The position numbers and the translations under genes were made by a program. A DNA stretch of 64,000 nt, taken from assembly GCA_947375105.1 (NCBI GenBank), contig CANCET010000002.1:10471-74470 (forward strand), read 5' to 3'. The stretch comes from Sphingomonadaceae bacterium. GTDB lineage: Bacteria > Pseudomonadota > Alphaproteobacteria > Sphingomonadales > Sphingomonadaceae. Below are positions 4,228-52,614 of the stretch, one piece after another (within the stretch, counting starts at the first letter, position 1; every line of letters begins with the position of its first letter). The notes beneath the pieces are model-generated. The model searched no databases. It was not told the DNA's origin and worked only from the letters and a program-made list of their open reading frames with translations.

Positions 4228-5406
4228 TCAATAGCTCTTGGGCAGGCCGAGCACTTTCTCGGCAATGAAGCACATGATCAGCTGCTCGGTGATTGGCGCG
4301 AGGCGGGTCAGCGCGCTTTCCCGGTAGAGCCGCTCGACGTGGTACTCCTTGGCATAGCCAAAGCCGCCATGGGTGGCGACCGCCTGCCACGCTGCATCAT
4401 GGCAAGCGCGCGCGGCGAGGAACTTGCACGCATTGGCTTCGGCCCCGCAGGGCAGGCCCTGGTCATAAAGGCGCGCAGCCTTTTCGACCATCAGCCAGGC
4501 GCTCTCCAGATACATCCACTTTTCCGCAAGCGGGTGCTGGATACCCTGGTTCATGCCGATCGGCCGATCAAACACCACGCGTTCCTTCGCATAGTTCACG
4601 CCCCGCCGCAGCGCATCGCGCCCGATTCCAATGGCCTCGGCGCCGATGAGGATGCGTTCGGGATTAAGGCTGTGGAGGATGTAGCCGAAGCCCTTCCCTT
4701 CCTCGCCGATGCGGTCCTCGTCAGGAATGAACAGCCCGTCGATGAAGATCGCATTCGAATCCACCGCCTTGCGGCCCATCTTGTTGATCAGTCGCACATC
4801 AATCTTGGACCGGTCGAGATCGGTGTAGAAGATCGTGATGCCATCAGTCGGCCGGGCGCAGTCCTCGAACTTGGCCGTCCGAGTCAGAAGCATGATCTTG
4901 TTCGCGACTTGGGCGGTCGAGGTCCAGACCTTCTGGCCGTGGACCACATAACCCCCCGGCACTTTCTCGGCGAACGTCTTGATCCGCGTGGTGTTTAGCC
5001 CAGCGTCGGGCTCGGTAAAGCCGAAGCAGCACTGGTCCTCGCCCGAAACGAGCCGCGGGACCCAGCGCGCCTTCTGCTCCAGTGTGCCCTCCACCACGAT
5101 GGGGTGCGGGCCGAACAGGTTGATGTGGATGGTCGAAGCCGCCGCGAACCCGCCGCCGCAAGCCGCGACCTCACTCATCATCGTCATTGCCTCGGTCACG
5201 CCGAGGCCCGAACCGCCGAATTGCTCAGGCATGGTAATGCCAAGCCAACCGCCATCGGCCATCGCGCGGTGAAATTCGCGCGGGAACTCACCGTCATCAT
5301 CGCGTGCGAGCCAATAGTCATCGCCGAACGGCGCACAGGCGGCACGAACGCCTTCGCGGATAGCCTGAAGGTCTTCCTCGGTGGGAAGCGAGCGAGCTTG
5401 GGTCAT
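4228..5406 (-). CDS. Acyl-CoA dehydrogenase
   Basis: FGFTEPDAGLN, GQKVWTS, LNPERILI, THGGFGYAKEYHVER. Confidence 0.93.
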   Translation of the reverse strand: MTQARSLPTEEDLQAIREGVRAACAPFGDDYWLARDDDGEFPREFHRAMADGGWLGITMPEQFGGSGLGVTEAMTMMSEVAACGGGFAAASTIHINLFGPHPIVVEGTLEQKARWVPRLVSGEDQCCFGFTEPDAGLNTTRIKTFAEKVPGGYVVHGQKVWTSTAQVANKIMLLTRTAKFEDCARPTDGITIFYTDLDRSKIDVRLINKMGRKAVDSNAIFIDGLFIPDEDRIGEEGKGFGYILHSLNPERILIGAEAIGIGRDALRRGVNYAKERVVFDRPIGMNQGIQHPLAEKWMYLESAWLMVEKAARLYDQGLPCGAEANACKFLAARACHDAAWQAVATHGGFGYAKEYHVERLYRESALTRLAPITEQLIMCFIAEKVLGLPKSY

Positions 5407-9539: not shown

Positions 9540-9659
9540 ATGACCATTTTCGCCGACTACGCGCATGCAGGCCTGTCCGCCGTGGTCGCTGAAGGTCAGA
9601 ACTTTGCGGGGCACGGGCCTGCTTCCAACAACCAATTCCTGCGCCTGAAGGCTGCCTGA
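9540..9659 (+). CDS. Small 39-aa ORF (MTIFADYAHAGLSAVVAEGQNFAGHGPASNNQFLRLKAA), function unknown
   Basis: SD-like GGAGAGG just upstream, mostly G/C-ending codons, TGATG overlap with the next gene. Confidence 0.5.
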   Translation: MTIFADYAHAGLSAVVAEGQNFAGHGPASNNQFLRLKAA

Positions 9660-10822
9660 TGATTGAACGCTCCCTCTTCCAGCCCGAGCATGAGATGTGG
9701 CGCCAGACGGTCCGTCACTTCGTTGAGAAGGAAATCGTCCCGTTCCACGAGCAGTGGGAAAAAGACGGGATCGTGCCACGTGAGTTGTGGCTCAAGGCAG
9801 GCGAGGCCGGCATGCTGTGCTGCACCGTGCCCGAAGAATACGGCGGTCTTGGGCTCGACTATCTGTTCGATGTGGTCGTGTTCGAGGAACTTTGGCGCGT
9901 GGGTGCCAGCGGCCCGGGTTTCCTGATCCATGCGGATCTGGTCGCCACCTATATCCTCAGCTTCGGCAGCGAAGAGCAGAAGCGCCACTGGCTGCCCAAG
10001 ATGGTGCGCGGCGAGGCGATCGGCTCGCTCGGCATGACCGAGCCGCACGCTGGCAGCGACCTCAAGGCGATCCGCACCAAGGCCGAGCGCGATGGCAACC
10101 ACTTCGTCATCAATGGGCAGAAAGTGTTCATTTCAAACGGCCAGATGTGCGACGTGCTGGTACTGGCGACCAAGACAGATACCGCCGCCGGCGCCAAGGG
10201 CGTGACGCTGTTTCTCGTCGATGCTTCGTTGCCCGGCTTTAATCGGGGCAAAAATCTCGACAAGCTGGGGATGAAGGCACAAGACACCTCGGAGCTTTTC
10301 TTCGACAACCTGCGCGTTGATGCCGATGCGATGCTGGGCGAGGAAGGCAAAGGCTTCTCGCTGATGATGACCAAGCTGGCGCAGGAACGGCTGGCGCAGG
10401 CGGTCCGCTCAGCCACTGTGATCGAGACGGTGATCGACTACACGGTCGAATACACCAGCGAGCGCAAGGCCTTCGACCAGACCATCGCAGACTTCCAGAA
10501 CACCCAGTTCGTGCTCGCCGACCTGAAAGCCCGCAGCGTGATGGCACGCGTGTTTACCGACAAGTGCATCGAGCTGTTCATGCGCGGCGAGCTCAATCCC
10601 GTCGATGCCGCCATGGCCAAGATGGTCACGTCAGAGCTGCACTGCGAGACCGTCGACAAGTGCCTGCAATTGTTCGGCGGCTGGGGCTATATGTGGGAGT
10701 ATCCCATTGCGCGGGCCTATGCCGATGCGCGGATCGTCAAGATCGCCGGTGGTTCCATCGAGGTAATGAAGACCATCATCTCGCGCGACCTGTTCAAGGG
10801 CAAGTTGAGTGCAAAAAGGTGA
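9659..10822 (+). CDS. Acyl-CoA dehydrogenase (LCAD-like)
   Basis: GMTEPHAGSDL, NGQKVFISNG, LAQERL, QLFGGWGYMWEYPIAR. Confidence 0.93.
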   Translation: MIERSLFQPEHEMWRQTVRHFVEKEIVPFHEQWEKDGIVPRELWLKAGEAGMLCCTVPEEYGGLGLDYLFDVVVFEELWRVGASGPGFLIHADLVATYILSFGSEEQKRHWLPKMVRGEAIGSLGMTEPHAGSDLKAIRTKAERDGNHFVINGQKVFISNGQMCDVLVLATKTDTAAGAKGVTLFLVDASLPGFNRGKNLDKLGMKAQDTSELFFDNLRVDADAMLGEEGKGFSLMMTKLAQERLAQAVRSATVIETVIDYTVEYTSERKAFDQTIADFQNTQFVLADLKARSVMARVFTDKCIELFMRGELNPVDAAMAKMVTSELHCETVDKCLQLFGGWGYMWEYPIARAYADARIVKIAGGSIEVMKTIISRDLFKGKLSAKR

Positions 10823-22419: not shown

Positions 22420-22669
22420 AAAACGATGATGCCTGCTTTGCTGCATGTGCCAATGCGTCGCCGATCCGCGATCGAGAGCGTGCAGGGCTGTCAATTTTGG
22501 AGAGCCCTTAACCCGATTTTTATTATTTTTTATCATTATCTTACATCACGATTGGCTGGCCTCGGGGAACGCGTCTGGCTTGCAAGCACACACTCTCGCC
22601 GGCACCGAACCAGCGCTAACGGAGACTGCGGCCGACGAAGCGAAGCGGTCCAACCAAACGCCGCCAGCG

Positions 22670-22697: not shown

Positions 22698-22829
22698 TAG
22701 GTGGAGGAGATGGTAAGCGCACATATCGTTCGGGCAGGAACGTCGGCGTCTGGAAGATCGGCAATCAAGCCGCGCCAAGACCACCACGTCCGGCATAGCC
22801 GCAAAACCACCCCCAAACGGAGAGATGTC

Positions 22830-23576
22830 ATGGGTAGATTGTCAGGCAAGGTCGCCATCATCACGGGTGCGTCGCAAGGCATGGGTGAAGCCCACGCAAA
22901 GGCCTTTGTTGCCGAAGGCGCCAGCGTGATCCTCACCGACATAAACGCCGTAGCTGGCGAAGCGCTGGCCGAGGCGCTGGGCAGCCAAGCCATGTTTGTG
23001 AAGCACGATGTCGCCAGCGAAGCCGGCTGGGCGGAAGTCGTTGCTGCCGGCGAAGCCCGCTTTGGTCGGGTCACCGTGCTGGTCAACAATGCCGGGATCA
23101 TCGGTACCATCGCCAAGACGGCTGACCTTTCAGCGGCCGATTTTGCACACGTCTGCGCGGTCAACCAGACTGGCGTGTTTCTGGGCATGCGCGCGGTCCT
23201 GCCCTCGATGATCGCCAGCGGCGGCGGCTCGATCGTGAACATCTCCTCGACCTCGGGCATGATCGCCAATGTCGGGACGCCCAATCTCGCCTATGCTGGC
23301 AGCAAGTTCGCGGTGCGGGGCATGACCAAGCAGGTCGCCGTCGAATACGGCGACCAGAACATCCGCGCCAATTCGGTCCACCCGGGCTACGTCAAAACTC
23401 CGATGATGGTCGCCGCGACCGATGAGGACGGAGGCGGCGCAGCGGCGGGTATCCCGCTCCGCCGTTTTGCGGAGCCTTCGGAGATCTCGCCACTGGTGGT
23501 GTTCCTTGCCTCGGACGAATCCTCGTTCATCACCGGCACCGAGCATGTCATCGACGGCGGCATGATAGTGTGCTGA
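22830..23576 (+). CDS. SDR, secondary/cyclic alcohol dehydrogenase type (3alpha,20beta-HSD / cyclopentanol dehydrogenase-like)
   Basis: MGRLSGKVAIITGASQGMG, VNNAG, YAGSK, NSVHPG, VIDGG. Confidence 0.88.
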   Translation: MGRLSGKVAIITGASQGMGEAHAKAFVAEGASVILTDINAVAGEALAEALGSQAMFVKHDVASEAGWAEVVAAGEARFGRVTVLVNNAGIIGTIAKTADLSAADFAHVCAVNQTGVFLGMRAVLPSMIASGGGSIVNISSTSGMIANVGTPNLAYAGSKFAVRGMTKQVAVEYGDQNIRANSVHPGYVKTPMMVAATDEDGGGAAAGIPLRRFAEPSEISPLVVFLASDESSFITGTEHVIDGGMIVC

Positions 23577-23601: not shown

Positions 23602-24573
23602 ATGATCACTGCTCAGGATTTCGCGTTCCACCCCCGTGACCCCGCGGATATGCAGTGGACCGAAACGCTGTTCCTGATCTTTTCGGTGCCCGAAGCGGGC
23701 ATCAGCGGCAATCTCTACAATCTGGCGCGGCCCAATCTCGGCGTCTGCCACAGCTCGATCGAGATCCACAAAGGGCTCAGCCTGCATCCCTGGCAGATCG
23801 AGCACAACGATGCGCAGATGCATTTGCCCTGCCCCGAGCGCTTCGAAGATTTCACGCTGGCCAATGGCCTGTCGTTTCAGGCGCACAGCGCCCGCGATTG
23901 CGCGTTCCAGTACCAGTCGCTCGATGGCAATTGCGCGCTCGACATCACCTACAGCGCTGTGTGCGATCCCTTCGATCCTCACGATGCGGCGGAGAACCCG
24001 CTGATCGCCTCGTCCAAGCTCGCCGGCTATGATGGCTGGAACACCGGCCATATGGAAAGCAAAGGCCGCGTGACCGGCACGCTCTCGCTTCACGGCCGCG
24101 AGTACAAGGTCGATTGCACCGAGGGCATGAACAAGAGCTGGGGCCCGCGCAAGGACTGGGGCAGCAAGGGCGGCACCTGGGTTCATGTCAACCTCGGCCC
24201 CGATCTCGGCGCATTCCTCGTCTTGGGACTCGAATTCGAGAACAAGGAGGTCGTCTACGGCCCCTTCAAGTTCGGCTACGTGGTCGTCGACGGCGAGCGC
24301 CGCCCCCTCGTTCGGGCAACCATGCGCGCGCAGCGGTTCGATATGCTGGTCACCCGCGCCGTGGTCGAGTTCGAAGACGACCGTGGCAATTGCTGGAACG
24401 CGGTCGGCACGACTGTTGCTGCCGCGCCGTGGTACAACTTCAATCCATCGAGCGCGGCTTTCCAGACCTTGATGCGCTGGGAAAGCGGCACCCGCGTCGG
24501 CCATAGCCACATCGCCGATTTCGCCGGCCTCGCGCACCTTTCGCGCGGGATGGCCGACAAACATGACACCTGA
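23602..24573 (+). CDS. Uncharacterised predicted tandem beta-barrel protein (tocopherol cyclase/AttH/CrtC-like), copy 1
   Basis: Beta-strand-like pattern; WTETLFL, GTLSLHGREYKVD, MNKSWGPR (cf. the EKNWG/DHxWG motif of this superfamily). Confidence 0.6.
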   Translation: MITAQDFAFHPRDPADMQWTETLFLIFSVPEAGISGNLYNLARPNLGVCHSSIEIHKGLSLHPWQIEHNDAQMHLPCPERFEDFTLANGLSFQAHSARDCAFQYQSLDGNCALDITYSAVCDPFDPHDAAENPLIASSKLAGYDGWNTGHMESKGRVTGTLSLHGREYKVDCTEGMNKSWGPRKDWGSKGGTWVHVNLGPDLGAFLVLGLEFENKEVVYGPFKFGYVVVDGERRPLVRATMRAQRFDMLVTRAVVEFEDDRGNCWNAVGTTVAAAPWYNFNPSSAAFQTLMRWESGTRVGHSHIADFAGLAHLSRGMADKHDT

Positions 24574-24601
24574 CCCAAAGAGCGGGACGACGGACTAGAC
24601 C

Positions 24602-25819
24602 ATGATCGACGACAGCATCCGGCAGCATCCCAGCGATGCCTTCATCGAAGCGGTCCGCGCGCGGTTTCCCACCGAGCGCGAAGTGGACACCGTGCTCACC
24701 CGCAAGATGCGCCGCCGCAATGGTCCTTCGTTTCAGGCGGTCGGGTTGGAAACGCTCGTTGATGGCACAGAGCGCCTGATCACCAATCAGGTCGGCTATC
24801 CGGTCCGCATCGCTGATGCGCGCTGGCTTTCCGGCGGCGCATCCAAGCTTCAGATGCTGTTCAACCTCCAATGGCGCGGCGAGAACGCCAATGGCCAGGC
24901 GCAAGTCGTCACACCAATGGTGCTGCGCATGGAACCGGCCGCTTCGGTTACAGAGTCGAGCCGTCGGCGCGAGTTCGAAGTGATCCGCGCGGTCGCGGGC
25001 ACCGTGCCAGTCCCGCATGCCTACTGGATGGACCCAGACGCCCAGTTCCTGCCCTATCCGGCGATGATCTATGGCTTTGCCGCCGGCACAGCGAAGCCTT
25101 CGCACGATGCTGGCAAAGTCACCGGCCTCGGCCAGAACTATGGGCCGGAGCTGCGTGCCAAGCTGGCACCGCAGTTCATCGAATACCTTGCCCGCATCCA
25201 TAACCTTCCTATCGGCGCGCCGCCGGTGCTCGCCAGCTTCGACCGGCCGGAAGTGGGCTCGAATGCGTCGGTCATCCGGCAGGTCAATGCTGCGCGGCGC
25301 ATCTGGGAGGAAGACCGGATCGAGGACGAACCGGTCATGGCAGTGGTCTACAAGTGGCTCATCCGCAACGCCCCGCCAATCGACCATATCTCGATCGTCC
25401 ATGCCGACTATCGCAGCGGCAATTTCCTGTTCGATGAAGCGAGGGGCGAGATCACCGCATGGCTCGATTGGGAAGGTGCTGTGCTGGGCGACCGGCATCA
25501 GGACCTGACATATGCAGCGCTGCCGATCTTCCAGCATTATGCCGAAGATGGCGAGACGATCCTGGTCTCGGGGATGATGCCCGAGGCAGAGCTTTATGCC
25601 GCCTATGAAAAGGCCTCAGGCCTGCCGGTCGATCCGGTTCGCATCCGCTATTTCGGCGTGTTCAACCGCTATCTCGTCTCGGTGCTGCTGCTCGCAGCCT
25701 CGACCCGGGCGGCACGCGGCGCGGCAACCCATCAGGACGTGCTCCTCAACCATGTTGCCGGAATGGGCTACCTCGCCCTCTCCGATCTGCTCGGCAATTT
25801 ACGGAGTGCGACGGCATGA
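24602..25819 (+). CDS. APH/choline-kinase-fold phosphotransferase (LvaA / ACAD10-11 kinase-like), copy 1
   Basis: LSGGASK loop, REFEVI, HADYRSGN, LDWE, GDRHQDL. Confidence 0.88.
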   Translation: MIDDSIRQHPSDAFIEAVRARFPTEREVDTVLTRKMRRRNGPSFQAVGLETLVDGTERLITNQVGYPVRIADARWLSGGASKLQMLFNLQWRGENANGQAQVVTPMVLRMEPAASVTESSRRREFEVIRAVAGTVPVPHAYWMDPDAQFLPYPAMIYGFAAGTAKPSHDAGKVTGLGQNYGPELRAKLAPQFIEYLARIHNLPIGAPPVLASFDRPEVGSNASVIRQVNAARRIWEEDRIEDEPVMAVVYKWLIRNAPPIDHISIVHADYRSGNFLFDEARGEITAWLDWEGAVLGDRHQDLTYAALPIFQHYAEDGETILVSGMMPEAELYAAYEKASGLPVDPVRIRYFGVFNRYLVSVLLLAASTRAARGAATHQDVLLNHVAGMGYLALSDLLGNLRSATA

Positions 25820-26319
25820 ACCAGGATTTCGAAACGCAGTTGCAAGTGGTCCAGCGCGCGCTAGGCGAGGTGGTGCTTCCCGCTCTTGGGAGCGCTGACA
25901 AGCATGTGATCGAACAGCTCCACCTCTCGCTTGCCGCGATCGGCTTCATGCAGCAGCGCGTCCCGCTCGCGCGCCAATACTATCGCGGCACGCTTGAGCG
26001 CTATCTGGCTATGGCAGGCGCGGTCGCGGCGCTACTTGACGCTGACGCGGAGAGCCTCGCAGACCAGTCGAAGCAAAGCAAAGCAGTGCTGGACGATCCG
26101 GCCGCCTCGGACGCCGATCTGCGCGCCGCGACTGCCACGTTGCGAGCCGGCGTTGCTGCGCTTGTCGAAGCCGCGAAGGATACGCCGCAAGAGAGTGCGC
26201 TCGATGCGCTGGTCTTGGAATACAGCGAGGCAATCCTGAGCGAAGACCGCTCGTGGTGCATCCCGCTGGGCTTCGAACTGCGCCCCGAAGATCTGCCCAA
26301 GCCTGACTGGCAACCCTAA
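25816..26319 (+). CDS. Small helical protein coupled to the kinase (LvaB-like), copy 1
   Basis: ATGA overlap with the kinase; N-terminal QLQVVQRALGEVVLPAL pattern. Confidence 0.6.
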   Translation: MNQDFETQLQVVQRALGEVVLPALGSADKHVIEQLHLSLAAIGFMQQRVPLARQYYRGTLERYLAMAGAVAALLDADAESLADQSKQSKAVLDDPAASDADLRAATATLRAGVAALVEAAKDTPQESALDALVLEYSEAILSEDRSWCIPLGFELRPEDLPKPDWQP

Positions 26320-36000: not shown

Positions 36001-37179
36001 ATGTCGTCTGATCTTTTCCAAACAACCCTGTGCGATACCGCCGACCATCATCGCGATCTGCGTGACAGCGTCAGCAAACTCGTCGGCAAGTTTGGGCGGA
36101 AATACTTCCAGGATGTCGTCAACAAGGGCGAGCAGCCGACCGCGCTGTGGTCGGCGCTGGGCGAAGCCGGGTTCCTGGGTGTGCACGTGTCAGAGGCATA
36201 CGGCGGCGGTGGTGGCGGCCTTGCGGAACTCAATATCTGCATCGAGGAAACCGCAGCGCATGGCTGCCCGATCCTCTCGATGGTCATCTCCTCGATCACC
36301 GCGCCGATCATTGCGGCTTGCGGCAGCGAGGCGATGAAGCAGGAGTGGTTGCCCGGCATCGCCAGCGGCAAACGCAAGATGTGCTTCGGCATCACCGAGC
36401 CGAACGCCGGGTCGAACACCCACAAGGTCACCACCCATGCGGTGCGCAAGGGCAATGGCTGGGTGATCAACGGCGCAAAATACTGGACTTCCGACATCGA
36501 CCAGTCGGACGCGGTCATGGTCGTGGCGCGTGACGGCGTGCCGGTGAATGACGGCTCGCGGCAAGGCTTGTCTCTGTTCGTTGTGCCCACCAACACGCCG
36601 GGCATCTCGATGACACAGATCGATTCAGCGCTGCGCACCTCCGAAAAGCAGTTCTCGGTGTTTTACGACAATGTCGAAGTGTCAGACGACGCGCTGATCG
36701 GGGAGCCGGGCGCGGGTCTGAAGCAGGTGTTCTCGGGCCTCAATCCCGAACGCATCGCAGCGGCCGCGATCAACAACGGCATCTCGCGCTTCGCGATTAC
36801 GCAGGCCGCGCAATATGCCAAGGACCGATCGGTTTGGAGCACACCGATCGGTGCGCATCAGGGCGTCGCCCATCCGCTTGCCGAGGCATACATCAACGTG
36901 CAGGCCGCCCGCTTGCTCAATGCGCGCGCCGCGCAGCTGTGCGATGGCGGGGAAGACGCCGCCGAAACCGCCAACATGGCCAAGTTCGCTGCCGCCGAAT
37001 CTTCCTTGAAGGCGCTCGATCAGGCGATCCAGGTTCACGGTGGCAACGGGCTTTCGAATGAGTATGGTCTTTCCGACCTGTGGTTCATCGCGCGCCTGCA
37101 CCGCACAGCACCGGTGAGCCGCGAGATGATCCTGAATTACGTCTCAACCCACAGCCTGGGTCTTCCGAAGAGCTACTGA
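36001..37179 (+). CDS. Acyl-CoA dehydrogenase
   Basis: FGITEPNAGSN, NGAKYWTS, LNPERI, QVHGGNG. Confidence 0.93.
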   Translation: MSSDLFQTTLCDTADHHRDLRDSVSKLVGKFGRKYFQDVVNKGEQPTALWSALGEAGFLGVHVSEAYGGGGGGLAELNICIEETAAHGCPILSMVISSITAPIIAACGSEAMKQEWLPGIASGKRKMCFGITEPNAGSNTHKVTTHAVRKGNGWVINGAKYWTSDIDQSDAVMVVARDGVPVNDGSRQGLSLFVVPTNTPGISMTQIDSALRTSEKQFSVFYDNVEVSDDALIGEPGAGLKQVFSGLNPERIAAAAINNGISRFAITQAAQYAKDRSVWSTPIGAHQGVAHPLAEAYINVQAARLLNARAAQLCDGGEDAAETANMAKFAAAESSLKALDQAIQVHGGNGLSNEYGLSDLWFIARLHRTAPVSREMILNYVSTHSLGLPKSY

Positions 37180-42665: not shown

Positions 42666-42697
42666 TACCAGTGGGTATTGATTTAACCCAGTGGGTT
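42666..42697. promoter_or_regulatory. Second candidate operator: two CCAGTGGGT-containing inverted repeats 20 bp apart
   Basis: TACCAGTGGGTA (42666-42677) and AACCCAGTGGGTT (42685-42697). Confidence 0.5.
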
Positions 42698-42706
42698 TTC
42701 TATGTT

Positions 42707-42747
42707 TCAACATATGTGTTGATTCGACCTTATGTCGAGCGCAAAAT
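42707..42747 (+). promoter_or_regulatory. Operator site D (42707-42722) overlapping a putative TTGATT-N17-CAAAAT promoter
   Basis: TCAACATATGTGTTGA; -35 at 42719-42724, -10 at 42742-42747. Confidence 0.68.
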
Positions 42748-42792
42748 GCGGCCCAAGCAGCGCCGGAAGAATTGATCGAAGGGATCTCAAGG

Positions 42793-44418
42793 ATGTCCGA
42801 GCCTGCCAGCGCTGCAATCAAGGCAGACTACGATGCTGTCGTGGTCGGCGCGGGCTTTGCCGGGCTCTACATGATCCACAAGCTGCGCGGCCTCGGCCTC
42901 TCGGTCCTCGCGTTCGAAGCGGGCAGCGGTGTCGGCGGAACGTGGTTCTGGAACCGCTACCCCGGCGCACGCTGCGACGTGTACAGCCTCGAATACTCCT
43001 ACTCGTTCGACGCAGGGCTGCAGCGAGAATGGGTCTGGAGCGAGCGCTATCCCGCGCAGGCTGAGATCCTGCGTTATATCGAGCACGTGGCCGACCGGTT
43101 CGATCTGCGCCGTGACATCCGCTTCAACACCCGTGTTGCTTGTGCGCACTATAACGAGCCCGCAAACCTCTGGAGCGTCGAGACGGAGACCGGCGAGGTC
43201 GTAACCGCTCGCTTCTGCATCATGGCCTCGGGTGCGCTCTCCGCCCCCCGCAAGCCCGACTTTGCGGGCCTCGATGACTTTGGGGGCAACTGGTATCACA
43301 CTGGGCACTGGCCGCACGAGCCGGTCGATTTTACCGGCCAGACTGTTGCAGTGATCGGCACGGGCTCCTCGGGCATCCAAGTCACGCCGATGGTCGCCCA
43401 GCAGGCAAAGCGCCTGTTAGTATTCCAGCGCACCCCGAACTTCAGCATCCCGGCCTGGAACCACCCGCTGCCCGATCACGTGCAGGACGCATGGAAGCGC
43501 GATGCCGCACAGCTACGGGCCAAAGCCAAGGCGACGAAATCAGGCGCACTCTATGAGTATGGCCAGCGCGGCGCATTCGAGGTGAACGACGAAGAGCGCC
43601 AGCGCGAGTTCGACGCACGCTGGGCGCGGGGCGGTGCCAATTTTACCCATGCGTTCAACGACCTGTTCAAGGACAAGGCAGCCAACGATCTCGCGGCAGA
43701 CTATGTACGCGGCAAGATCCGGGAAATCGTGAAAGACCCGGCCGTCGCGGCAAAACTGACCCCCACCGACCACGCTATCGGCACCAAGCGCATTTGTGTC
43801 GACACCGACTACTACGCGACCTTCAACCGCGAGAACGTAACGCTGGTCGATGCGCGCGAGACCCCGATCACCCGCATCACGCCGGCGGGCATTGAAACCT
43901 CTGGCGGCCAGTACGCGGTGGACAGCATCGTGTTCGCTACCGGATACGACGCTGTGACTGGCGCGCTCACCCGCATCGACATCCGCGGGCGCGGCGGCGT
44001 CTCGCTTGCGGAGAAATGGCAAGACGGGCCCAAGACCTATCTCGGCCTTATGGTCGCCGGTTTTCCCAACCTGTTCACGATCACCGGCCCTGGCAGCCCC
44101 TCGATCCTGACCAATGTGGTCATGGCGATTGAGCAGCACGTCGATTGGGTCGGCGATTGCCTTGCCTATATGGCAAGCCAAGCCGCAGCGACAATCGAGG
44201 CTGAACCCAAGGCCGAAGAAGACTGGGTGGACCACGTGCGCGAAGTGGCTGAGGCGACGCTGCATGTGCAGGCCAACAGCTGGTACATGGGTGCGAACAT
44301 CCCCGGCAAACCGCGCGTTATGCTGCCCTATGTCGGCGGACTGGGCGTCTATACCGGCATCTGCAACGACATTGCAGCCGATGGCTATCGCGGCTTTGCC
44401 ATGGCGCGCGGGGGCTGA
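42793..44418 (+). CDS. Type I Baeyer-Villiger monooxygenase (CHMO/PAMO-like)
   Basis: GAGFAG, GGTWFWNRYPGARCD, FGGNWYHTGHWP, GTGSSG, GTKRICVD, ATGYD. Confidence 0.94.
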   Translation: MSEPASAAIKADYDAVVVGAGFAGLYMIHKLRGLGLSVLAFEAGSGVGGTWFWNRYPGARCDVYSLEYSYSFDAGLQREWVWSERYPAQAEILRYIEHVADRFDLRRDIRFNTRVACAHYNEPANLWSVETETGEVVTARFCIMASGALSAPRKPDFAGLDDFGGNWYHTGHWPHEPVDFTGQTVAVIGTGSSGIQVTPMVAQQAKRLLVFQRTPNFSIPAWNHPLPDHVQDAWKRDAAQLRAKAKATKSGALYEYGQRGAFEVNDEERQREFDARWARGGANFTHAFNDLFKDKAANDLAADYVRGKIREIVKDPAVAAKLTPTDHAIGTKRICVDTDYYATFNRENVTLVDARETPITRITPAGIETSGGQYAVDSIVFATGYDAVTGALTRIDIRGRGGVSLAEKWQDGPKTYLGLMVAGFPNLFTITGPGSPSILTNVVMAIEQHVDWVGDCLAYMASQAAATIEAEPKAEEDWVDHVREVAEATLHVQANSWYMGANIPGKPRVMLPYVGGLGVYTGICNDIAADGYRGFAMARGG

Positions 44419-44419
44419 C

Positions 44420-46033
44420 ATGCAACCGCCCACCAGCCGAACTTTCCCGGAACTCCTGCGCGAACTGGCTGCCGTTGCGCCGGATCGGTGCGCGGTCATA
44501 GATGGCGCCGTCTCGGTCACTTACGCCAGCCTCGCGCAGCGCGCCCATTTGGTCACGAACGCGCTAAAAGGAGCAGGCGTAAAGCGCGGCGACCGGGTCG
44601 GTGTGCTCTTGTCGAACCGGATCGAATGGCTCGAGATCTTCTTCGGTGCGAGCGCGGCGGGCGCTGTCGTCGTGCCGATCAGCACCTGGTCCAAGCCCGC
44701 AGAGCTTGAATTCATTCTGAGCGACGGCGGTGTCTCGGTGCTGTTTGCGATGCCGTCTTCGGGCAAGGAAGACTTCTTTGCCGCGCTGAACATGCTGGTT
44801 CCCGAGGCTATCGAGCAGAATCAATGGGTCAGCGCGCGCCTGCCTGCTCTGCACCTGCTCGTTGCCATGGCAACCACCGCGCCCGGCGCGGGATGGTGCA
44901 CCCACAACGGGTTCTGCACCGCAGCGTCCGATATGCCGCTTGGCGACGGACCAGACCCGGCCGACGACGCGCTCATTCTCTACACTTCGGGCTCGACCAG
45001 CAAACCCAAGGCCGTCCGCCTTGCGCACGGCGCGCTGATCGAAAACGGTTTCAACATCGGCGGGCGCATGGGCCTCGCGGCCAACGACAGGGTATTTGTC
45101 TCGGTCCCGCTGTTCTGGGCCTATGGCTCAGCCAATGCGCTCCCCGCCGCAATGAGCCACGGCGCAGCGATCGTCCTGCAGGACCGGTTTGAGCCAGGCG
45201 GCGCGCTGGCGCTGATTGAGCAGCACCGCTGCACGGCAATCTACACCCTGCCGACAATGACCAGCGCGCTGATCGCACACGAGGACTTTGCTCTGGCCCG
45301 CACGGCCAGCCTCAGAACCGGGCTCACGATCGGCAGCCCGCAGGATGTGATGGCTGCGGCCACAGGGCTGGGCGCGGCACATATCTGCAACATCTACGGA
45401 TCGAGCGAGACCTGCGGCAATTGCTGCGTCACGCCGTGGGATTGGCCGCTGGACCGCCGCGCAGCTTGCCAGGGTCCGCCGCTCCCGGGTGTCAGCCTGC
45501 GGCTCGTCGATGCTGAAACCGGGGCAAAGGCCGAACCGGGCCAGCCCGGGCTCATCGAGGTGACGGGCTACCTCATGGCTGGCTACGGGGGGCAGAGCGC
45601 CAGCCACAACGCCGCCGCTTTCACAGCGGACGGGTGGTATCGCACCGGAGACCTTGGTCAGTTGTCTGATGATGGAGACCTGATCTTCCTTGGTCGCGCA
45701 ACGGAGATGATCAAGCGCGCCGGGATCAATGTCTCCCCCGCTGAAGTCGAGGACGTGCTGCTGCAGCATCCGGCAGTGGCGCAAGTCGCCGTGGTCGGCG
45801 CGCCCGATCCTGCGCGCGGCGAGATCATCGTCGCGTTCGTGGTCACAACGAAGCCCGCAACCGAAGCCGAGCTCATCGCGCATGCCCGGACGATTGCATC
45901 GACCTACAAGGTGCCCGACCGGATCGTGTTCCGAACGAAACTTCCCGCGACCGCCACCGGCAAGTTGCAGCGCCAGCCGCTCAAGGCGGAAGCCGCAGCC
46001 CTCAGCGCAAAGGATAAAGCCCATGTCGCGTGA
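44420..46033 (+). CDS. Acyl-CoA synthetase (AMP-binding)
   Basis: YTSGSTSKPK, YGSSE, YRTGD, EMIKRAGINVSP, GKLQR; start at MQPPTSR. Confidence 0.9.
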   Translation: MQPPTSRTFPELLRELAAVAPDRCAVIDGAVSVTYASLAQRAHLVTNALKGAGVKRGDRVGVLLSNRIEWLEIFFGASAAGAVVVPISTWSKPAELEFILSDGGVSVLFAMPSSGKEDFFAALNMLVPEAIEQNQWVSARLPALHLLVAMATTAPGAGWCTHNGFCTAASDMPLGDGPDPADDALILYTSGSTSKPKAVRLAHGALIENGFNIGGRMGLAANDRVFVSVPLFWAYGSANALPAAMSHGAAIVLQDRFEPGGALALIEQHRCTAIYTLPTMTSALIAHEDFALARTASLRTGLTIGSPQDVMAAATGLGAAHICNIYGSSETCGNCCVTPWDWPLDRRAACQGPPLPGVSLRLVDAETGAKAEPGQPGLIEVTGYLMAGYGGQSASHNAAAFTADGWYRTGDLGQLSDDGDLIFLGRATEMIKRAGINVSPAEVEDVLLQHPAVAQVAVVGAPDPARGEIIVAFVVTTKPATEAELIAHARTIASTYKVPDRIVFRTKLPATATGKLQRQPLKAEAAALSAKDKAHVA

Positions 46034-46904
46034 TGCCTGGGGTCGCTGGGGCGAAGCCGACGAGGTCGGCGCGCTCAATCTCGTCGGCACGAGCGAAGTG
46101 CTCGGCGCTACCGGCCTCGTCCGGCAGGGCCGGGTCGTGAGCCTCGCACAGCCGCTGTCGAAGAAGACCCCGGTTCCCAGCAACCGCACCGGCCTCCTCC
46201 ATTTCATGGACCGCGACGGCGGCGACTATGCGGCCGGAGCACGCATTTCCAACGGCTTCCAATTTGCCGACGACAGCGTGGTCATGCCGCTCCACATCGG
46301 CACGCATATCGACGCGCTGTGCCATGTGTGGACTGAGGATCAGCTCTACAACGGCCATCCCGGATCGGGCACGAACAGCACGCACGGCGCGAAAAAGTGC
46401 GGCGTGGAAAAGCTGCCGCCCATCGTCACGCGCGGGTTGCTCCTTGATGTGGCGGCGCTGCATGAAGCGCCTCTGCCATTCGGCTATGCGATCGGGGTGG
46501 ACGAAATGAAAGAGGCCGCCAGCCGCGCAGGAGTGACTCCCGCGATTGGCGATGCCGTTCTGATCCGAACGGGATGGCAGGAAAATCAGGCGGGCAAGCC
46601 TGCACAGACGGTCGATTTCAACGAGGAGCCGGGCATAGACGTTGAGGCTGCGCTCTGGCTTGCCGAGGCCGGCGTTTCGCTCGTCGGCGCGGACAACTAT
46701 GCGATCGAGGCCATGCCCTTTCCCGCAGGCACAACCTTCCCCGTCCATCAGCGCCTGATCCGCGACTTCGGCATTCCGCTGCTTGAAGGCCTCGTGCTGC
46801 AGGACTTCGCCGCGCTCGGTGTGCCCGAGTTCCTGTTCGTCGCCGCGCCGCTGCCGATCGTCGGTGGAACCGGCAGCCCGATCACCCCGCTGGCGATTTA
46901 TTGA
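46023..46904 (+). CDS. Cyclase-family metal-dependent hydrolase, copy 2
   Basis: WGRWGEADEVGALN, LHIGTHIDALCH, GADNYAIE, LLEGLVL. Confidence 0.87.
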   Translation: MSRDAWGRWGEADEVGALNLVGTSEVLGATGLVRQGRVVSLAQPLSKKTPVPSNRTGLLHFMDRDGGDYAAGARISNGFQFADDSVVMPLHIGTHIDALCHVWTEDQLYNGHPGSGTNSTHGAKKCGVEKLPPIVTRGLLLDVAALHEAPLPFGYAIGVDEMKEAASRAGVTPAIGDAVLIRTGWQENQAGKPAQTVDFNEEPGIDVEAALWLAEAGVSLVGADNYAIEAMPFPAGTTFPVHQRLIRDFGIPLLEGLVLQDFAALGVPEFLFVAAPLPIVGGTGSPITPLAIY

Positions 46905-46908
46905 TCCC

Positions 46909-47934
46909 ATGACCGTGGACGCCCATGAGCCGGATAGGGCCGCACGGCAGGTCGCCGATGGGCTGGCGCAGCTTGTGCGCCATGCGATCCCCTCGGCGCA
47001 GGATATCGCCTTCACGGGCCTCACCCGCTCCGCCGGCGGCCTCAGTCGGGAGAACTGGTCGTTTGATGCCAGCTGGCACGATGCGGAAGGAGGCCACACA
47101 CATCGGCTGATGCTGATGCGCGATGCCAAAGGCACTCTGCTGAAGACCGAACGCAGCCGCGAGTTCGATGTGCTGAGGGCACTGCAAGGCAGCCCCGTGG
47201 CGGCACCGGCGGTGTTCTGGATGGATCCCGATGGGCAGTTCCTCGGCGCGCCCTCGCTGATCATGGAGCGCGTTTCAGGCCGCTGCGACTATATGGTGCT
47301 GAATGGCGCACAGCCATTGAATGAGCGGCTGGAACTCGCACATGCCTTTCTGCAACTGCTGACCGATATTCAGACGATCGACTGGCAGACACGCGGCCTC
47401 GGGCCCAGCCTCGGCGTACCTGAAGGCTCGCCGGCCCAGATCGTGCTCGATGAGTGGGAGACGGAGTATCGCCGTGTGCAACTAGAGCCCCATCCGGAGC
47501 TCGATTATGTTTTGGCGTGGATGCGCCGCGCGGCCCCGCAAGCGCAAGCCATTGTTCTCGTCCACGGCGATTTCAAACCGGGCAACGCGCTGATCGAGGG
47601 CACACGGATCACCGCCAAGCTCGATTGGGAGACCGCGCATCTGGGTGATCCGCTCGAAGACCTCGGCTGGATCACCAATCCCGTGCGGCGGCGCGAACAC
47701 CAGATCCCCGGTCATTGGGAACGTGCGCAGATCGTCGAAGCCTATACCCGCCTGACCGGCCGCGCAGTGGGCGACGCTGCTCTGACATGGTGGAACGTGT
47801 TCTCGTGCTGGAAGCTGGCGGTGATCCAGCTGACGGCCGTCAACGAGTTCGTCTCGGGCCGCTACAACCGCGTGTTCCAGACTCCCTCGTGGCTCTTCCG
47901 CCCCATGCTCCAGATGATGGAGCGCGCGACATGA
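46909..47934 (+). CDS. APH-fold phosphotransferase (LvaA / ACAD10-11 kinase-like), copy 2
   Basis: AGGLSRENW, REFDVL, HGDFKPGN, LDWE, GDPLEDLGW. Confidence 0.88.
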   Translation: MTVDAHEPDRAARQVADGLAQLVRHAIPSAQDIAFTGLTRSAGGLSRENWSFDASWHDAEGGHTHRLMLMRDAKGTLLKTERSREFDVLRALQGSPVAAPAVFWMDPDGQFLGAPSLIMERVSGRCDYMVLNGAQPLNERLELAHAFLQLLTDIQTIDWQTRGLGPSLGVPEGSPAQIVLDEWETEYRRVQLEPHPELDYVLAWMRRAAPQAQAIVLVHGDFKPGNALIEGTRITAKLDWETAHLGDPLEDLGWITNPVRRREHQIPGHWERAQIVEAYTRLTGRAVGDAALTWWNVFSCWKLAVIQLTAVNEFVSGRYNRVFQTPSWLFRPMLQMMERAT

Positions 47935-48398
47935 GGCCCTCAGTCGAAGAGCAGCTACTGGGCACGTGCCACATTCTCGAAACCGTCGTCGCGCCGGCTG
48001 TGGCCGAGCCCTTCGCACGCACCATTCTCGACAGCCTCATCGCGAACTTGCGCATGGTCACCGAAGCGCTGCCCGCCGTGCCGGGCTTCCTGCGCTGGGA
48101 CAATGCGGCGACGCAGGACCTGCTGCACAAGCTGCGCAGCGAGCTGCCTTCCGATCTCGCCCGGCGCATCGACACTGCGCTGGAAACCCCCGAACCCGAC
48201 ATGCTCGACAGCGCTGCGCAGACCGCGCGCAACGACTTGCTGCGCGCTATGCTCGCTGAAGCCGTCTGCAGCCCGGATCTGGCCCCCGATCTGCACCGTG
48301 CCATTCAGCAACACATGATCGCTCGCGCCTCACGCGCACCGATGCGTTACGTGCCGACCGCCGTTCCCCCCGCACCCACGCCCACCACGAGACCGTAA
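47931..48398 (+). CDS. Small helical protein coupled to the kinase (LvaB-like), copy 2
   Basis: ATGA overlap with the kinase; N-terminal EQLLGTCHILETVVAPAV. Confidence 0.6.
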   Translation: MRPSVEEQLLGTCHILETVVAPAVAEPFARTILDSLIANLRMVTEALPAVPGFLRWDNAATQDLLHKLRSELPSDLARRIDTALETPEPDMLDSAAQTARNDLLRAMLAEAVCSPDLAPDLHRAIQQHMIARASRAPMRYVPTAVPPAPTPTTRP

Positions 48399-48402
48399 AC
48401 CC

Positions 48403-49530
48403 ATGCTTACCGCGCTTGACGATACGCTTTGGCACCAGTTGCCGACAACATTCGATCACGTCTGGACCAGCGACCCCCGGTTCTTCGACCGCTACTGGTT
48501 CGCGATCTATTCGGGCGATGGGCGGGTCGCGATCCAGATCACCATGGGCGCCTATCGCAACATGAACGTGCTGGATGCCGGGGCGGTGATGATCGTCGAT
48601 GGCAAACAGTACAACCTGCGTGTCTCGCGCTCGCTCAATGGCAGCGTGGAGACGGTCTGCGGCCCGATCCGCATCACGCCCATCGAGGCACTGCAGACGC
48701 TCGATATCGTGATCGAGCCCAGCGAAGGCGTGCTTCACGGCCGCATCCGCTGGGACGGTGTGGAGCCCGCGCACGAGGAGCATCCCCACTACACTCGCCT
48801 GCAAAGCCGCACGGTCGAGGACTATCGTCGCTTCGATCAGATCGGCGTGGCCAGCGGCTATCTGGAGGTCGAGGGCCAGCGTGTCGAGATCGACAAATGG
48901 TGGTCCTGCCGCGACCATTCCTGGGGCGTGCGGCGCGGCATGGGCGTGCCCGAACCAGTCACCGGCCCCAAGCTTCCCCTCTCCGAGAAAGGCCACGTCA
49001 TGGCCTTCCTGTTCTTCTCCACCACCGCCGTGAGCGGCAGCCTGCTTTTCTCCGGGCGCGGCGATGATACGCCCTATACCACCGGCGTGCTCACCTTGCG
49101 CGAGACTGAGACGGCGCACGATGTGACCCAGATCGCGCTTGAGGTCGATCTTCACGAAGGCACCCGCCGCTTCCGCCGCGCCGCCGTCGTTGCACAGTTG
49201 GAGGGCGCCGGCGAACTTCGGCTGGAGCTCGATGCGCAGGGCGCCTCGATCGCGATGCAAGGCCTTGGTTACAGCGGCGGCTTCAACGATGGGCGCGGGC
49301 TCGGCGCGTGGCGGGGCGAGACCTGGCTCGAAACCGATGTGTGGGATGTGTCACACCCCGCCAAGGTGATCTATCCGGACGGTACCGAGAAGGTTCACTG
49401 GCACCGCATCCAGCCCGTCTCCATCGCGGCAAGCCTGAACGGGGAAACCAGCCAAGGCACCGGCAGCATGACGCTGACCATTGCGGGGCAGCTTCCCGCG
49501 CATCTGCAAGTCCAGTCCGCTTCCATCTAG
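48403..49530 (+). CDS. Uncharacterised predicted tandem beta-barrel protein (tocopherol cyclase/AttH-like), copy 2
   Basis: FFDRYWF, GPIRITPIE, SGYLEVEGQRVEID, RDHSWGVR. Confidence 0.65.
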   Translation: MLTALDDTLWHQLPTTFDHVWTSDPRFFDRYWFAIYSGDGRVAIQITMGAYRNMNVLDAGAVMIVDGKQYNLRVSRSLNGSVETVCGPIRITPIEALQTLDIVIEPSEGVLHGRIRWDGVEPAHEEHPHYTRLQSRTVEDYRRFDQIGVASGYLEVEGQRVEIDKWWSCRDHSWGVRRGMGVPEPVTGPKLPLSEKGHVMAFLFFSTTAVSGSLLFSGRGDDTPYTTGVLTLRETETAHDVTQIALEVDLHEGTRRFRRAAVVAQLEGAGELRLELDAQGASIAMQGLGYSGGFNDGRGLGAWRGETWLETDVWDVSHPAKVIYPDGTEKVHWHRIQPVSIAASLNGETSQGTGSMTLTIAGQLPAHLQVQSASI

Positions 49531-49546
49531 ACCGCAGGAGACCCGC

Positions 49547-50761
49547 TTGTTCGCATGCGTGCTTGCCGAAGTGCTGCGCCCCGGCGACCGCGTGGTCGTG
49601 GGCCAGGCGACGAGCGAGCCGGTGGGGCTGGTAGAGGACCTGTTTGCGGCAGCAACGCATATCGATGATCTGTCCGTATTCTGCGGCTACTCGCTGAACC
49701 CGGCATGGAAGGACGCAGTGCCGGATACGCTGCAGGTCATTTCCTATTGCGGGCTCGGCGCGATAGGTGCGCTCACTCTGCATGGCCGCGCCAAGGTCAT
49801 CCCCTTTGCCATGTCGCAATTGAGCGCCGCGCTGGCTGCGCGCACACTGCCGGTGGATGTGGTGCTGCTGCAAGTCTCCCCCGCCGATGCCGATGGCTAT
49901 CACAGCCTCGGACTTGCCGCCGACTATGTCTGGGAAGCGGCGCAACTGGCGCGGGTCGTTGTCGCCGAAGTCAATGCGCGCGTTCCGATAACCCGCAGCC
50001 AGTGCCGCCTCCACTGCAGTCAGATCGTTATCGCACGCACATGCGATACTCCGCTGCCCGAAGTGCGGCCTGAACCGGTTGGCGAAGTGCAGACGCGTGT
50101 TGCGCGCGAAGTGGCAAAGCTGGTCCCCGATGGCGCGACCGTGCAAATCGGCATTGGCAAGCTTTCCGATGCGATAGCCCATGCGCTGCGGGATCGCCGC
50201 GGCCTCAAGGTGCGATCAGGCATGGTGGGGGACTGGTTCCCCTCGCTGGTGGCTGCGGGGGCGATCGACACCAGCACGCCGGATGCCTGCCTCGCCTCGC
50301 TCGCAGTGGGCAGCAGCGCGCTTTACGATTGGCTGGACTGCAGCAATCTCCTGGGCTTTGCGCTCCCCGAACACCTGGCTGTGCCCGTCCGCGATTCTCC
50401 GTTTATGGCGATTAACTCGGGCATCGAGGTGGACTTGCGCGGCCAGGTCAACGCCGAATTCCTGGGGCACCGCTATGTCGGTGCCTCGAGCGGGCAACCA
50501 GACTATTTCCGGGCCGCGCAGCGTTCCGCGGGTGGCCTCGCAATCCTTGCTTTGCCCTCAGCCAACGAGCGCGGTGATGTGAGCCGCATCGTCCCGCGCC
50601 TCGCGAGCGGCTACGTCACCTCCGCACAGAGCGACGTGGATGTGATCGTCACCGAACAGGGCATAGCCGATATCCGCGCCACCGATTTTGGCGAACGCCG
50701 CCGCCGGATAACGGCAATTGCCGATCCGCGCATGCGCGGCGCACTCAGCCCCGAGGAATGA
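49547..50761 (+). CDS. Acetyl-CoA hydrolase/transferase family protein, copy 2 (catalytic Glu apparently replaced by Gly)
   Basis: DGATVQIGIG, INSGIEVDLRGQ, DVDVIVTEQG; RSGM where HSEM is expected; TTG start after AGGAG inferred. Confidence 0.82.
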   Translation: MFACVLAEVLRPGDRVVVGQATSEPVGLVEDLFAAATHIDDLSVFCGYSLNPAWKDAVPDTLQVISYCGLGAIGALTLHGRAKVIPFAMSQLSAALAARTLPVDVVLLQVSPADADGYHSLGLAADYVWEAAQLARVVVAEVNARVPITRSQCRLHCSQIVIARTCDTPLPEVRPEPVGEVQTRVAREVAKLVPDGATVQIGIGKLSDAIAHALRDRRGLKVRSGMVGDWFPSLVAAGAIDTSTPDACLASLAVGSSALYDWLDCSNLLGFALPEHLAVPVRDSPFMAINSGIEVDLRGQVNAEFLGHRYVGASSGQPDYFRAAQRSAGGLAILALPSANERGDVSRIVPRLASGYVTSAQSDVDVIVTEQGIADIRATDFGERRRRITAIADPRMRGALSPEE

Positions 50762-52002: not shown

Positions 52003-52613
52003 GCGGTCGGGGTTTGCACACCCGCCATCGCCAGGATCAGCCCTGCAACTTCGTCTGCCAGCGCTTCGAGCGAGAGGCGACCGTGCGGCCGGTACCAGAC
52101 ATAAGCCCAGCTCACGAGCCCGCCGATCGACAGCGCCGCGACATCGGGATCGTCGAGATGGAACTCGCCCGCATCGACCCCCGCTTGGAGCAGCCCGACC
52201 AGTTTCCGGTCAAAATCGCGCCTGAGCGCACTAAGCCGCTCGAAATCGGCAGGCTCAAGGCTCTTTTCCTCGCGCGTAAGGATGGCGATATAACGCTGGT
52301 TGCTCAGCACCGCCGTCAGGAAACCGCGCGAGAGCATCCTCAGTTTTTCGGTCGGAGACACTTCGGCTGCGAGTGCGGCCTCCATCGCCACCAGCGAAGC
52401 GCTGACCCCGCGCGTGCAGATATCGGCGAGCAGTTCGGCCTTCGACTTGAAGTGATTGTAGATGAACGGCTTGGTGACGCCCATGGTCTCCGCGACGGCT
52501 TCGAGCGTGGTTTTCTCATAACCGCGATCGTAAAACAGCTGCGCCGCCGCCTCGACCGTGCGCTCGCGCTTCAGCGCAGTCACTTCATCCCGGATCGTCG
52601 GAAAGCCTACCAT
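51999..52613 (-). CDS. TetR-family regulator (KstR2-like C-terminal domain), last gene of the caiB-BVMO operon
   Basis: HTH GYEKTTLEAVAETMGVTKPFIYNHFKSK; SWAYVWYRP; start inferred. Confidence 0.9.
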   Translation of the reverse strand: MVGFPTIRDEVTALKRERTVEAAAQLFYDRGYEKTTLEAVAETMGVTKPFIYNHFKSKAELLADICTRGVSASLVAMEAALAAEVSPTEKLRMLSRGFLTAVLSNQRYIAILTREEKSLEPADFERLSALRRDFDRKLVGLLQAGVDAGEFHLDDPDVAALSIGGLVSWAYVWYRPHGRLSLEALADEVAGLILAMAGVQTPTA

Positions 52614-52614
52614 C

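Follow-up and report, generated by a model that had tools for sequence, protein, structure and literature searches.

Two three-gene cassettes in the genome of a Sphingomonadaceae bacterium (GenBank assembly GCA_947375105.1, contig CANCET010000002.1) each combine a kinase of the aminoglycoside phosphotransferase (APH) fold, a small helical protein and a two-barrel protein, and each likely functions as an ATP-dependent dehydratase of separate parts, in which the kinase acts first and a phosphate lyase second. Both cassettes are located in a 64,000-nucleotide stretch of DNA, hereafter termed the window, which corresponds to positions 10471-74470 of contig C2 in a 3.6-Mb draft genome with 63% GC. 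The cassette at locus 1 comprises, on the + strand, barrel1 (23602-24573; 323 residues; DUF7064, 2.6e-8 and DUF7065, 1e-5), kin1 (24602-25819; 405 residues; PF01636, 1.1e-23) and small1 (25816-26319; 167 residues, four helices in an AlphaFold2 model). The cassette at locus 2, also on the + strand, comprises kin2 (46909-47934; 341 residues; PF01636, 4.5e-28; ATG start checked), small2 (47931-48398; 155 residues) and barrel2 (48403-49530; 375 residues; NF053593, 1.9e-75). This reading is carried by the homology of both barrels to the solved 25-phosphosteroid lyase (25-PSL), which is clear from sequence for barrel2 and remote, visible in fold and profile, for barrel1, together with a very strong linkage between barrel and kinase genes across genomes. 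We regard the kinase-then-lyase mechanism as quite likely at locus 2 and as favored, to a lesser degree, at locus 1.

Organization of the two cassettes

The two triads have the composition that an earlier note on this DNA had described. At both loci the gene of the small protein starts within the end of the kinase gene through an ATGA overlap, which at locus 1 reads ggcATGAacc. As that note also had it, the triad recurs at locus 2 in a different order and with very different sequences: kin1 and kin2 share 28% identity (E-value 4e-29), and BLASTP found no similarity either between small1 and small2 or between barrel1 and barrel2, both pairs being linked by profile comparison only. Its remark that neither kinase has an acyl-CoA dehydrogenase (ACAD) gene next to it, while a barrel gene adjoins the kinase-small pair both times, was borne out as well.

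The two-barrel proteins and 25-phosphosteroid lyase

The structures of 25-PSL were released in January 2026 as PDB entries 9FZN, 9G2I and 9G4C, the last of which is a complex with phosphate and desmostadienone. Against the NCBIfam model Rv3169_fam (NF053593), barrel2 scores 254.1 bits (cut-off 150) over model positions 1-344 of 351, and phmmer aligns it to 25-PSL (9FZN) over residues 2-185 with an E-value of 3.8e-29; its score against DUF7065 is 23 bits, below the cut-off of 27. The invariant residues of the family are all present in barrel2, namely D6, H11, Q12 and the segment R170-D171-H-S-W-G-V-R177. Another barrel of this genome, encoded on contig C103, matches 25-PSL over its full length (7.5e-36) and Rv3169_fam with 371.9 bits.

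For barrel1 the relationship emerges from structure and profiles. The protein passes the cut-off of DUF7064 (34.6 bits; cut-off 24.7) and falls just below that of DUF7065 (26.1 bits; cut-off 27). Its AlphaFold2 model, built with 27 homologues, has a predicted local distance difference test score (pLDDT) of 94 and a predicted template modeling (pTM) score of 0.92. Foldseek comparison of this model with the PDB ranked the three 25-PSL entries 9G4C, 9FZN and 9G2I first, with an E-value of 7e-15 and a template modeling (TM) score of 0.65, followed by the Diels-Alderases Fsa2/Phm7, kievitone hydratase and AttH NE1406 with E-values of ~1e-9 and TM scores of ~0.5. Profile alignment by hhalign of the barrel1 family with the Rv3169 family gave a probability of 91.4% and an E-value of 9e-7, with the SWGxR motifs in register, and both families keep an N-terminal Asp/His pair (D6 and H10 in barrel1). 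Phosphate lyase activity, one of the functions that the earlier note had proposed for the barrel, is well supported by this homology to the solved 25-PSL, through sequence for barrel2 and through fold and profile for barrel1.

Several points weigh against this assignment. No match between barrel1 and 25-PSL was obtained by phmmer or by hmmsearch of the PDB, and the score of barrel1 against Rv3169_fam is only 15.2 bits, far from the cut-off of 150. The segment that corresponds to the conserved motif reads M-N177-K-S-W-G-P-R183 in barrel1, so that the motif Asp has no match, and this difference suggests that the chemistry of barrel1 may differ. Asn177 is the natural residue of barrel1 (N177-K178 are encoded at window positions 24128-24133), whereas 25-PSL and the Rv3169 family have an Asp. 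The chain of 9G4C differs from that of 9FZN by just such an Asp-to-Asn change within RDRSWGVR, which suggests that the depositors considered this Asp functionally important. Among close homologues of barrel1 the motif residue alternates between Asp and Asn, and about one third of the family has Asn. Moreover, the lyase activity of the 25-PSL reference itself rests on PDB titles and ligands, plus papers from 2020-2024 that postulated a lyase.

The best surviving alternative is that the barrels, barrel1 above all, catalyze a phosphate-free (de)hydration, cyclization or isomerization, with the kinase acting on the barrel product or at some other step. It draws on the identity of the structural relatives that follow 25-PSL (Fsa2/Phm7, kievitone hydratase and AttH), on the Asn of barrel1 in the RD(R/H)SWG motif and on the remoteness of barrel1 from 25-PSL. 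We consider it improbable, because the structural match to 25-PSL is clearly superior to the others (TM 0.65 vs ~0.5), both families have the SWGxR motif and the N-terminal His, and a persistent, tight linkage to kinases would be left unexplained by cofactor-free hydratases. Slightly less probable still is the idea that in the DUF7064 branch, with its natural Asn and constant tie to a two-subunit kinase, phosphate would serve as the leaving group for a terpenoid carbocation cyclization, rearrangement or allylic transposition, akin to a terpene cyclase that depends on a monophosphate, and that the small protein would bridge kinase and barrel in a channelling complex. At one locus (L162:138-2995) of a genome with four barrel1-type copies, the barrel gene overlaps at its end with the small gene, and the kinase gene is divergent. 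The small gene follows the kinase at most loci, but its position after the barrel at this one suggests that the small protein may bridge kinase and lyase.

The barrel1 family is common in metagenomes. We found 155 homologues, and a profile search of 1.84 billion representatives yielded ~970 clusters at 50% identity. The family is rare among isolates, being present in 2 of 301 Sphingomonadales species genomes, one of which is the genome with four copies. The kinase-barrel fusions that the earlier note had raised did not turn up in the top 150 of the 970 barrel1-family matches, all of which are single-domain proteins of at most 387 residues, most of them with 300-350.

The kinases and their relatives

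Both kinases carry the catalytic APH-fold motifs HxDxxxxN and DxE/D: kin1 has intact VHADYRSGN and LDWEGAVLGD motifs, and kin2 has HGDFKPGN and DWE. The nearest solved relatives of kin1 are 9FSG (top match, 3.7e-12), 9O56, 3DXP, 3ATS (Rv3168) and ACAD11, and those of kin2 are 3DXP (8.5e-20), 9O56, 9FSG and ACAD11. As judged from sequence, both kinases belong to the ACAD10/11-LvaA-Rv3168 branch of APH proteins and not to the antibiotic kinases. The entries 9FSG, 9FT5 and 9FU5 are titled "aminoglycoside phosphotransferase-like protein" (379 residues) and have accessions near those of the 25-PSL entries, so that they may represent 25-hydroxysteroid kinase (25-HSK), the kinase that precedes the lyase in cholesterol breakdown. 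A search of the genome contigs with a published 25-HSK primer gave no match.

In the kinase tree, the kinases partnered by DUF6285 proteins form a single clade with full support in the Shimodaira-Hasegawa-like approximate likelihood ratio test (SH-aLRT 100). Its closest neighbors, with a support of 95, are the clade of kin1 and kin2 and a clade of 17 barrel-linked kinases, at least four of which have small partners. The partner type follows the tree closely, requiring 2-3 changes as compared to ~23 with shuffled labels.

This placement bears on a further alternative, which follows the logic of LvaAB and ACAD10/ACAD11: a 4-hydroxyacyl-CoA would be phosphorylated by the kinase with its small partner, an ACAD of the surrounding gene island would eliminate the phosphate, and the barrel would be an unrelated neighbor or a lipid-binding accessory. 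That kin1 and kin2 fall in the ACAD11/3DXP branch, sister to the DUF6285-partnered kinases, argues for it, as does the presence of CoA ligases and ACADs inside the window. However, none of these ACADs (4228-5406, 9659-10822 and 36001-37179) adjoins kin1 or kin2; they are separated from them by ~10 kb or more and represent ordinary paralogues of the ACAD next to the APH-DUF6285 fusion of this genome. That fusion (contig C3:30819-33619, L061) encodes a 500-residue APH kinase joined to a DUF6285 domain, with the ACAD gene directly after it, which in sequence is the canonical LvaA/LvaB/LvaC-type arrangement. With the canonical module on contig C3 and the barrel cassettes elsewhere, the organism has the ACAD-linked and the barrel-linked versions at separate sites. 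The idea of a window ACAD standing in for LvaC was rejected. Given further that the partner type tracks the kinase tree and that the barrels have a phosphoester lyase as a homologue, we regard this alternative as very doubtful, if less so than an antibiotic-related role. The latter would be a xenobiotic- or antibiotic-modifying system in which an APH-type resistance kinase acts together with a binding protein, a role formerly proposed for Rv3168 (structure 3ATS, deposited as a putative aminoglycoside phosphotransferase). Weak matches to NCBIfam APH(3')/Mph-type resistance models speak for it. It is very improbable indeed, as these matches reach 34-38 bits vs a cut-off of 205, with all NCBIfam scores far under the cut-offs, the operons have a catabolic setting of Baeyer-Villiger monooxygenase (BVMO), CoA ligase, P450, short-chain dehydrogenase/reductase (SDR) and TonB receptor genes, and the homologue of the barrel is a lyase of catabolism.

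The small helical partners

The small proteins are most likely LvaB-like subunits of the kinases, a view to which profiles, gene position and kinase phylogeny lend moderate support. Translational coupling is a constant feature of the small partner. A hidden Markov model (HMM) of the small2 family found a member directly 3' of kin2-type kinases in 37 fetched loci and none beside the kinases of the C103 type. Likewise, in 25 of 26 genomes a DUF6285 gene comes directly 3' of an APH kinase gene; the two are fused in some cases, and an ACAD is a frequent neighbor. In profile alignments by hhalign, the small2 family matches DUF6285 with a probability of 87% and an E-value of 4e-6 over the N-terminal 68 residues only, and the small1 family matches the small2 family with a probability of 60-76%. 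These links are weak to moderate and do not establish that small1 and small2 are members of DUF6285. The proposal of the earlier note that the small protein is LvaB/DUF6285-like thus stands as far as profile, position and phylogeny are concerned and falters on small1, whose family reaches a probability of only 23% with DUF6285. Neither small1 nor small2 matched any Pfam or NCBIfam model, including DUF6285, even at an E-value of 10.

The small1 family comprises 77 homologue clusters, none of which has a Pfam domain. The AlphaFold2 model of small1 has a pLDDT of 87.6, and Foldseek found no match to its fold in the PDB; a sequence search of the PDB with a DUF6285 protein gave no meaningful match either. 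Together with the weak profile score of small1, the lack of a fold match in the PDB weighs against a subunit of the LvaB type. Furthermore, 25-HSK is active alone and the kinase-barrel pairs of the C103 and Rv3168 types have no small partner, which argues that the small protein is not generally required. At one Caulobacteraceae locus (L120:389-4696), a kin2-type kinase with its small gene occurs alongside another kinase that has a true DUF6285 partner, all within 6 kb of the barrel.

Linkage of kinases and barrels across genomes

All three barrels of this genome adjoin a kinase gene. On contig C103 (2525-4698, L029), the gene of an EcKL/APH-type kinase overlaps that of an Rv3169-family barrel immediately downstream, and there is no small gene. 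Since the rough probability that any one gene of this genome has a kinase within 1.5 kb by chance is ~0.008, the recurrence at three of three barrels is far beyond chance. The C103 barrel is 94% identical to its counterpart in Novosphingobium sp. NDB2Meth1, the nearest named relative, and a homologue of the small protein at 96% identity is annotated as Novosphingobium sp. The C103 pair itself is found in ~45 Sphingomonadales genomes with a conserved housekeeping synteny (enolase, ribBA and ribH), a hint that it may serve an endogenous pathway for lipids or isoprenoids instead of catabolism.

The same linkage extends beyond this genome, and the co-occurrence that the earlier note had proposed as a test is borne out overwhelmingly. 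Within the genus, an APH-fold kinase lies no further than 1.5 kb from the Rv3169-family barrel at 12 of 12 loci, and in 12 other alphaproteobacterial genera a kinase stands beside the barrel at 10 of 13 loci. The remaining three of these 13, which count against a strict coupling, have no kinase within 8 kb. Another 15 loci, retrieved with larger flanks, all have a kinase; seven of them come from divergent barrel subfamilies, and the kinases belong to several subfamilies. In the Sphingomonadales and Caulobacterales, a kinase is present at 76 of 80 species-representative loci, which are the best 80 relatives and all from Alphaproteobacteria, and the other four loci have cut flanks. The gene order is variable, including kinase-barrel, barrel-kinase, kinase-small-barrel, divergent and barrel-small arrangements. 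Overall, the linkage of kinase, small and barrel genes is very strong and tolerates rearrangement.

The triad of locus 1 is likewise retained among relatives. With homologues of barrel1 at 65%, 46% and 43% identity, the barrel-kinase-small triad persists within otherwise unrelated neighborhoods, which contain a TonB receptor, a pyrroloquinoline quinone (PQQ) dehydrogenase, a TetR regulator, an ACAD or a second barrel. The genome with four copies displays the orders barrel-kinase-small, kinase-small-barrel-barrel and a divergent kinase with barrel-small; for the fourth barrel1-type copy, no kinase was found inside its 1.5-kb flanks. In Novosphingobium colocasiae and Sphingomonas sp. ID0503 (L001:6001-9755 and L003:2897-7008), a single kinase-small pair shares an operon with two different DUF7064 barrels. 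At 26 Caulobacterales loci (L113-L157, e.g., L155:3158-7071), an operon of P450 (431 residues), kinase and small genes is divergent from the gene of a 25-PSL-like barrel. A P450 at the head of kinase-small operons points to a sequence of hydroxylation, phosphorylation and elimination, which amounts to a net desaturation.

Genomic setting of the cassettes

The window as a whole is a Novosphingobium island densely packed with catabolic genes. Among these are four genes of BVMO/flavin monooxygenase (FMO) type, three CoA ligases, enoyl-CoA hydratases and a 3-hydroxyacyl-CoA dehydrogenase, as well as two BKACE enzymes (PF05853; 14631-15599 and 39181-40425), an esterase, a P450, TonB receptors and a PQQ quinohaemoprotein dehydrogenase.

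Four genes on the + strand make up locus 1, where gaps of 25 and 28 nucleotides are followed by the single overlap between kin1 and small1. Its first gene (22701-23576) encodes an SDR-family oxidoreductase (PF13561, 5.3e-60; PF00106, 5.2e-51) and stops 25 nucleotides upstream of barrel1. The true start of this gene may lie further downstream, because the Pfam domain begins only at residue 50; promoter-like sites are present upstream of it at 22498-22536. The neighbors of locus 1 and of its relatives are TonB receptors, PQQ dehydrogenases, SDR and aldo-keto reductase genes and not CoA ligases. The hydroxyacyl-CoA substrates that the earlier note had envisaged are not supported by this setting, nor by the use of free alcohols by 25-HSK, and we infer that locus 1 is at least as likely to act on an imported, free alcohol as on a CoA ester.

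Locus 2 lies inside one long operon on the + strand. This operon opens with a Baeyer-Villiger/FMO-type flavin monooxygenase (42691-44418; PF00743 and PF13738), followed by an AMP-binding acyl-CoA ligase (44114-46033; PF00501, 9.1e-70, and PF13193; true start probably ~44415) and a cyclase-family metal hydrolase (45729-46904; PF04199, 2.7e-26; true start probably ~46030), a candidate lactone or amide hydrolase, the stop of which lies 4 nucleotides before the ATG of kin2. Downstream of kin2, small2 and barrel2, the operon continues with a protein of the CoA-transferase/acetyl-CoA-hydrolase family (49481-50761; PF13336, 2.3e-34, and PF02550; true start probably 49547) and ends with a cytochrome P450 (50758-52002; PF00067), which is a candidate maker of the alcohol. 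A TetR-family regulator gene on the - strand (51999-52697; PF00440 and PF17932) is convergent with the operon end. This gene content is consistent with ring oxygenation or hydroxylation by the BVMO and the P450, lactone opening by the PF04199 hydrolase, CoA activation, and removal of the hydroxyl by kinase and lyase.

A putative mechanism of ATP-dependent dehydration

From the genes we infer a reaction, a physical complex of kinase and small protein, a class of substrates and a possible carriage of these on CoA. The APH-fold kinase, probably a heterodimer with the small helical protein from the overlapping gene, would transfer the gamma-phosphate of ATP onto a hydroxyl that ordinary enzymes can neither oxidize nor remove. 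Alicyclic or terpenoid compounds with a tertiary or hindered alcohol group are the best candidate substrates; the alcohol might originate from the neighboring P450 or, after hydrolysis, from a Baeyer-Villiger lactone. The two-barrel protein would then bind the phosphoester and, as a C-O lyase, eliminate the phosphate to give an alkene, which might in turn be handled by the hydratases and beta-oxidation enzymes of the island.

The chemistry of kinase and C-O lyase has so far been shown only for anaerobic cholesterol breakdown, and the present cassettes suggest that it is a modular tool in aerobes too. Wired to P450s and Baeyer-Villiger oxygenases, such a cassette could turn dead-end, in particular tertiary, alcohols into alkenes. 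This reading offers a testable hypothesis on the function of two large uncharacterized families, DUF7064/DUF7065 and Rv3169_fam, and of an unnamed family of small kinase partners, and extends to the uncharacterized Rv3168-Rv3169 operon of Mycobacterium tuberculosis. For biocatalysis, pairs of kinase and lyase could dehydrate tertiary alcohols under mild conditions and regioselectively.

Comparison with known systems

More distant relatives are the AttH-like enzymes, including CrtC, kievitone hydratase (PDB 7A0T), Fsa2/Phm7 (7E5T/7E5V) and AttH NE1406 (2ICH), which share the double beta-barrel fold of the present proteins. They are cofactor-free and act on hydrophobic isoprenoid or polyketide substrates, but have neither phosphoester substrates nor partner kinases, and are further from the present barrels than 25-PSL is.

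The genes Rv3168 and Rv3169 of M. tuberculosis form one operon, for which the TetR protein Rv3167c is the repressor (PMC5340868). As in the cassettes described here, a kinase is paired with a barrel of the Rv3169 family, and control by a TetR protein is a feature that locus 2 may share. However, the mycobacterial pair is uncharacterized, has no small partner gene and belongs to a different phylum.

In Pseudomonas putida, an APH-fold kinase gene followed by a coupled small gene, LvaA and LvaB, gives the same arrangement as here. LvaB, of 12 kDa, is a binding partner of LvaA, and phosphorylation of 4-hydroxyvaleryl-CoA requires both proteins, according to Rand et al. 2017 as summarized in PMC6692424. 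The clade of kin1 and kin2 is sister to the kinases with partners of DUF6285, a family to which LvaB itself may belong. The systems differ in the second step, in that LvaC, ACAD10 and ACAD11 eliminate the phosphate from a 4-phosphoacyl-CoA by means of an acyl-CoA dehydrogenase, whereas the cassettes here have a 25-PSL-like barrel instead and no adjacent ACAD.

The closest precedent is Sterolibacterium denitrificans, in which the C25 tertiary alcohol of cholesterol intermediates is dehydrated by a kinase and then by a separate C-O lyase (PMC8449060, PMC7411048). The kinase, 25-HSK, is an ATP-dependent 40-kDa enzyme of the phosphotransferase family that is active as a single recombinant protein (PMC8449060), and its substrates are free steroid alcohols. 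The lyase was still unidentified in 2021 and 2024, with no candidate gene near that of 25-HSK (PMC8449060, PMC11061730); as the PDB entries reveal, it has since been found to be a two-barrel protein of the Rv3169 family. Thus the description of the triad as a candidate new system in the earlier note was overstated. The cassettes have in common with 25-HSK and 25-PSL an APH-like kinase of ~40 kDa and a separate two-barrel C-O lyase homologue. In S. denitrificans, the kinase and lyase genes are unlinked and the kinase stands alone, whereas here they are operonic and joined by a small helical gene in two cassettes. The former is an anaerobe that obtains the alcohol from a Mo hydroxylase, whereas the host here is aerobic and has P450, BVMO and TonB-receptor genes around the cassettes. 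In addition, barrel1 belongs to another Pfam family (DUF7064) than 25-PSL and has an Asn in place of the motif Asp. Altogether, dehydration by a kinase and a C-O lyase is already known, and what is new is its components in operonic three-part cassettes, their aerobic settings and the natural Asn of barrel1.

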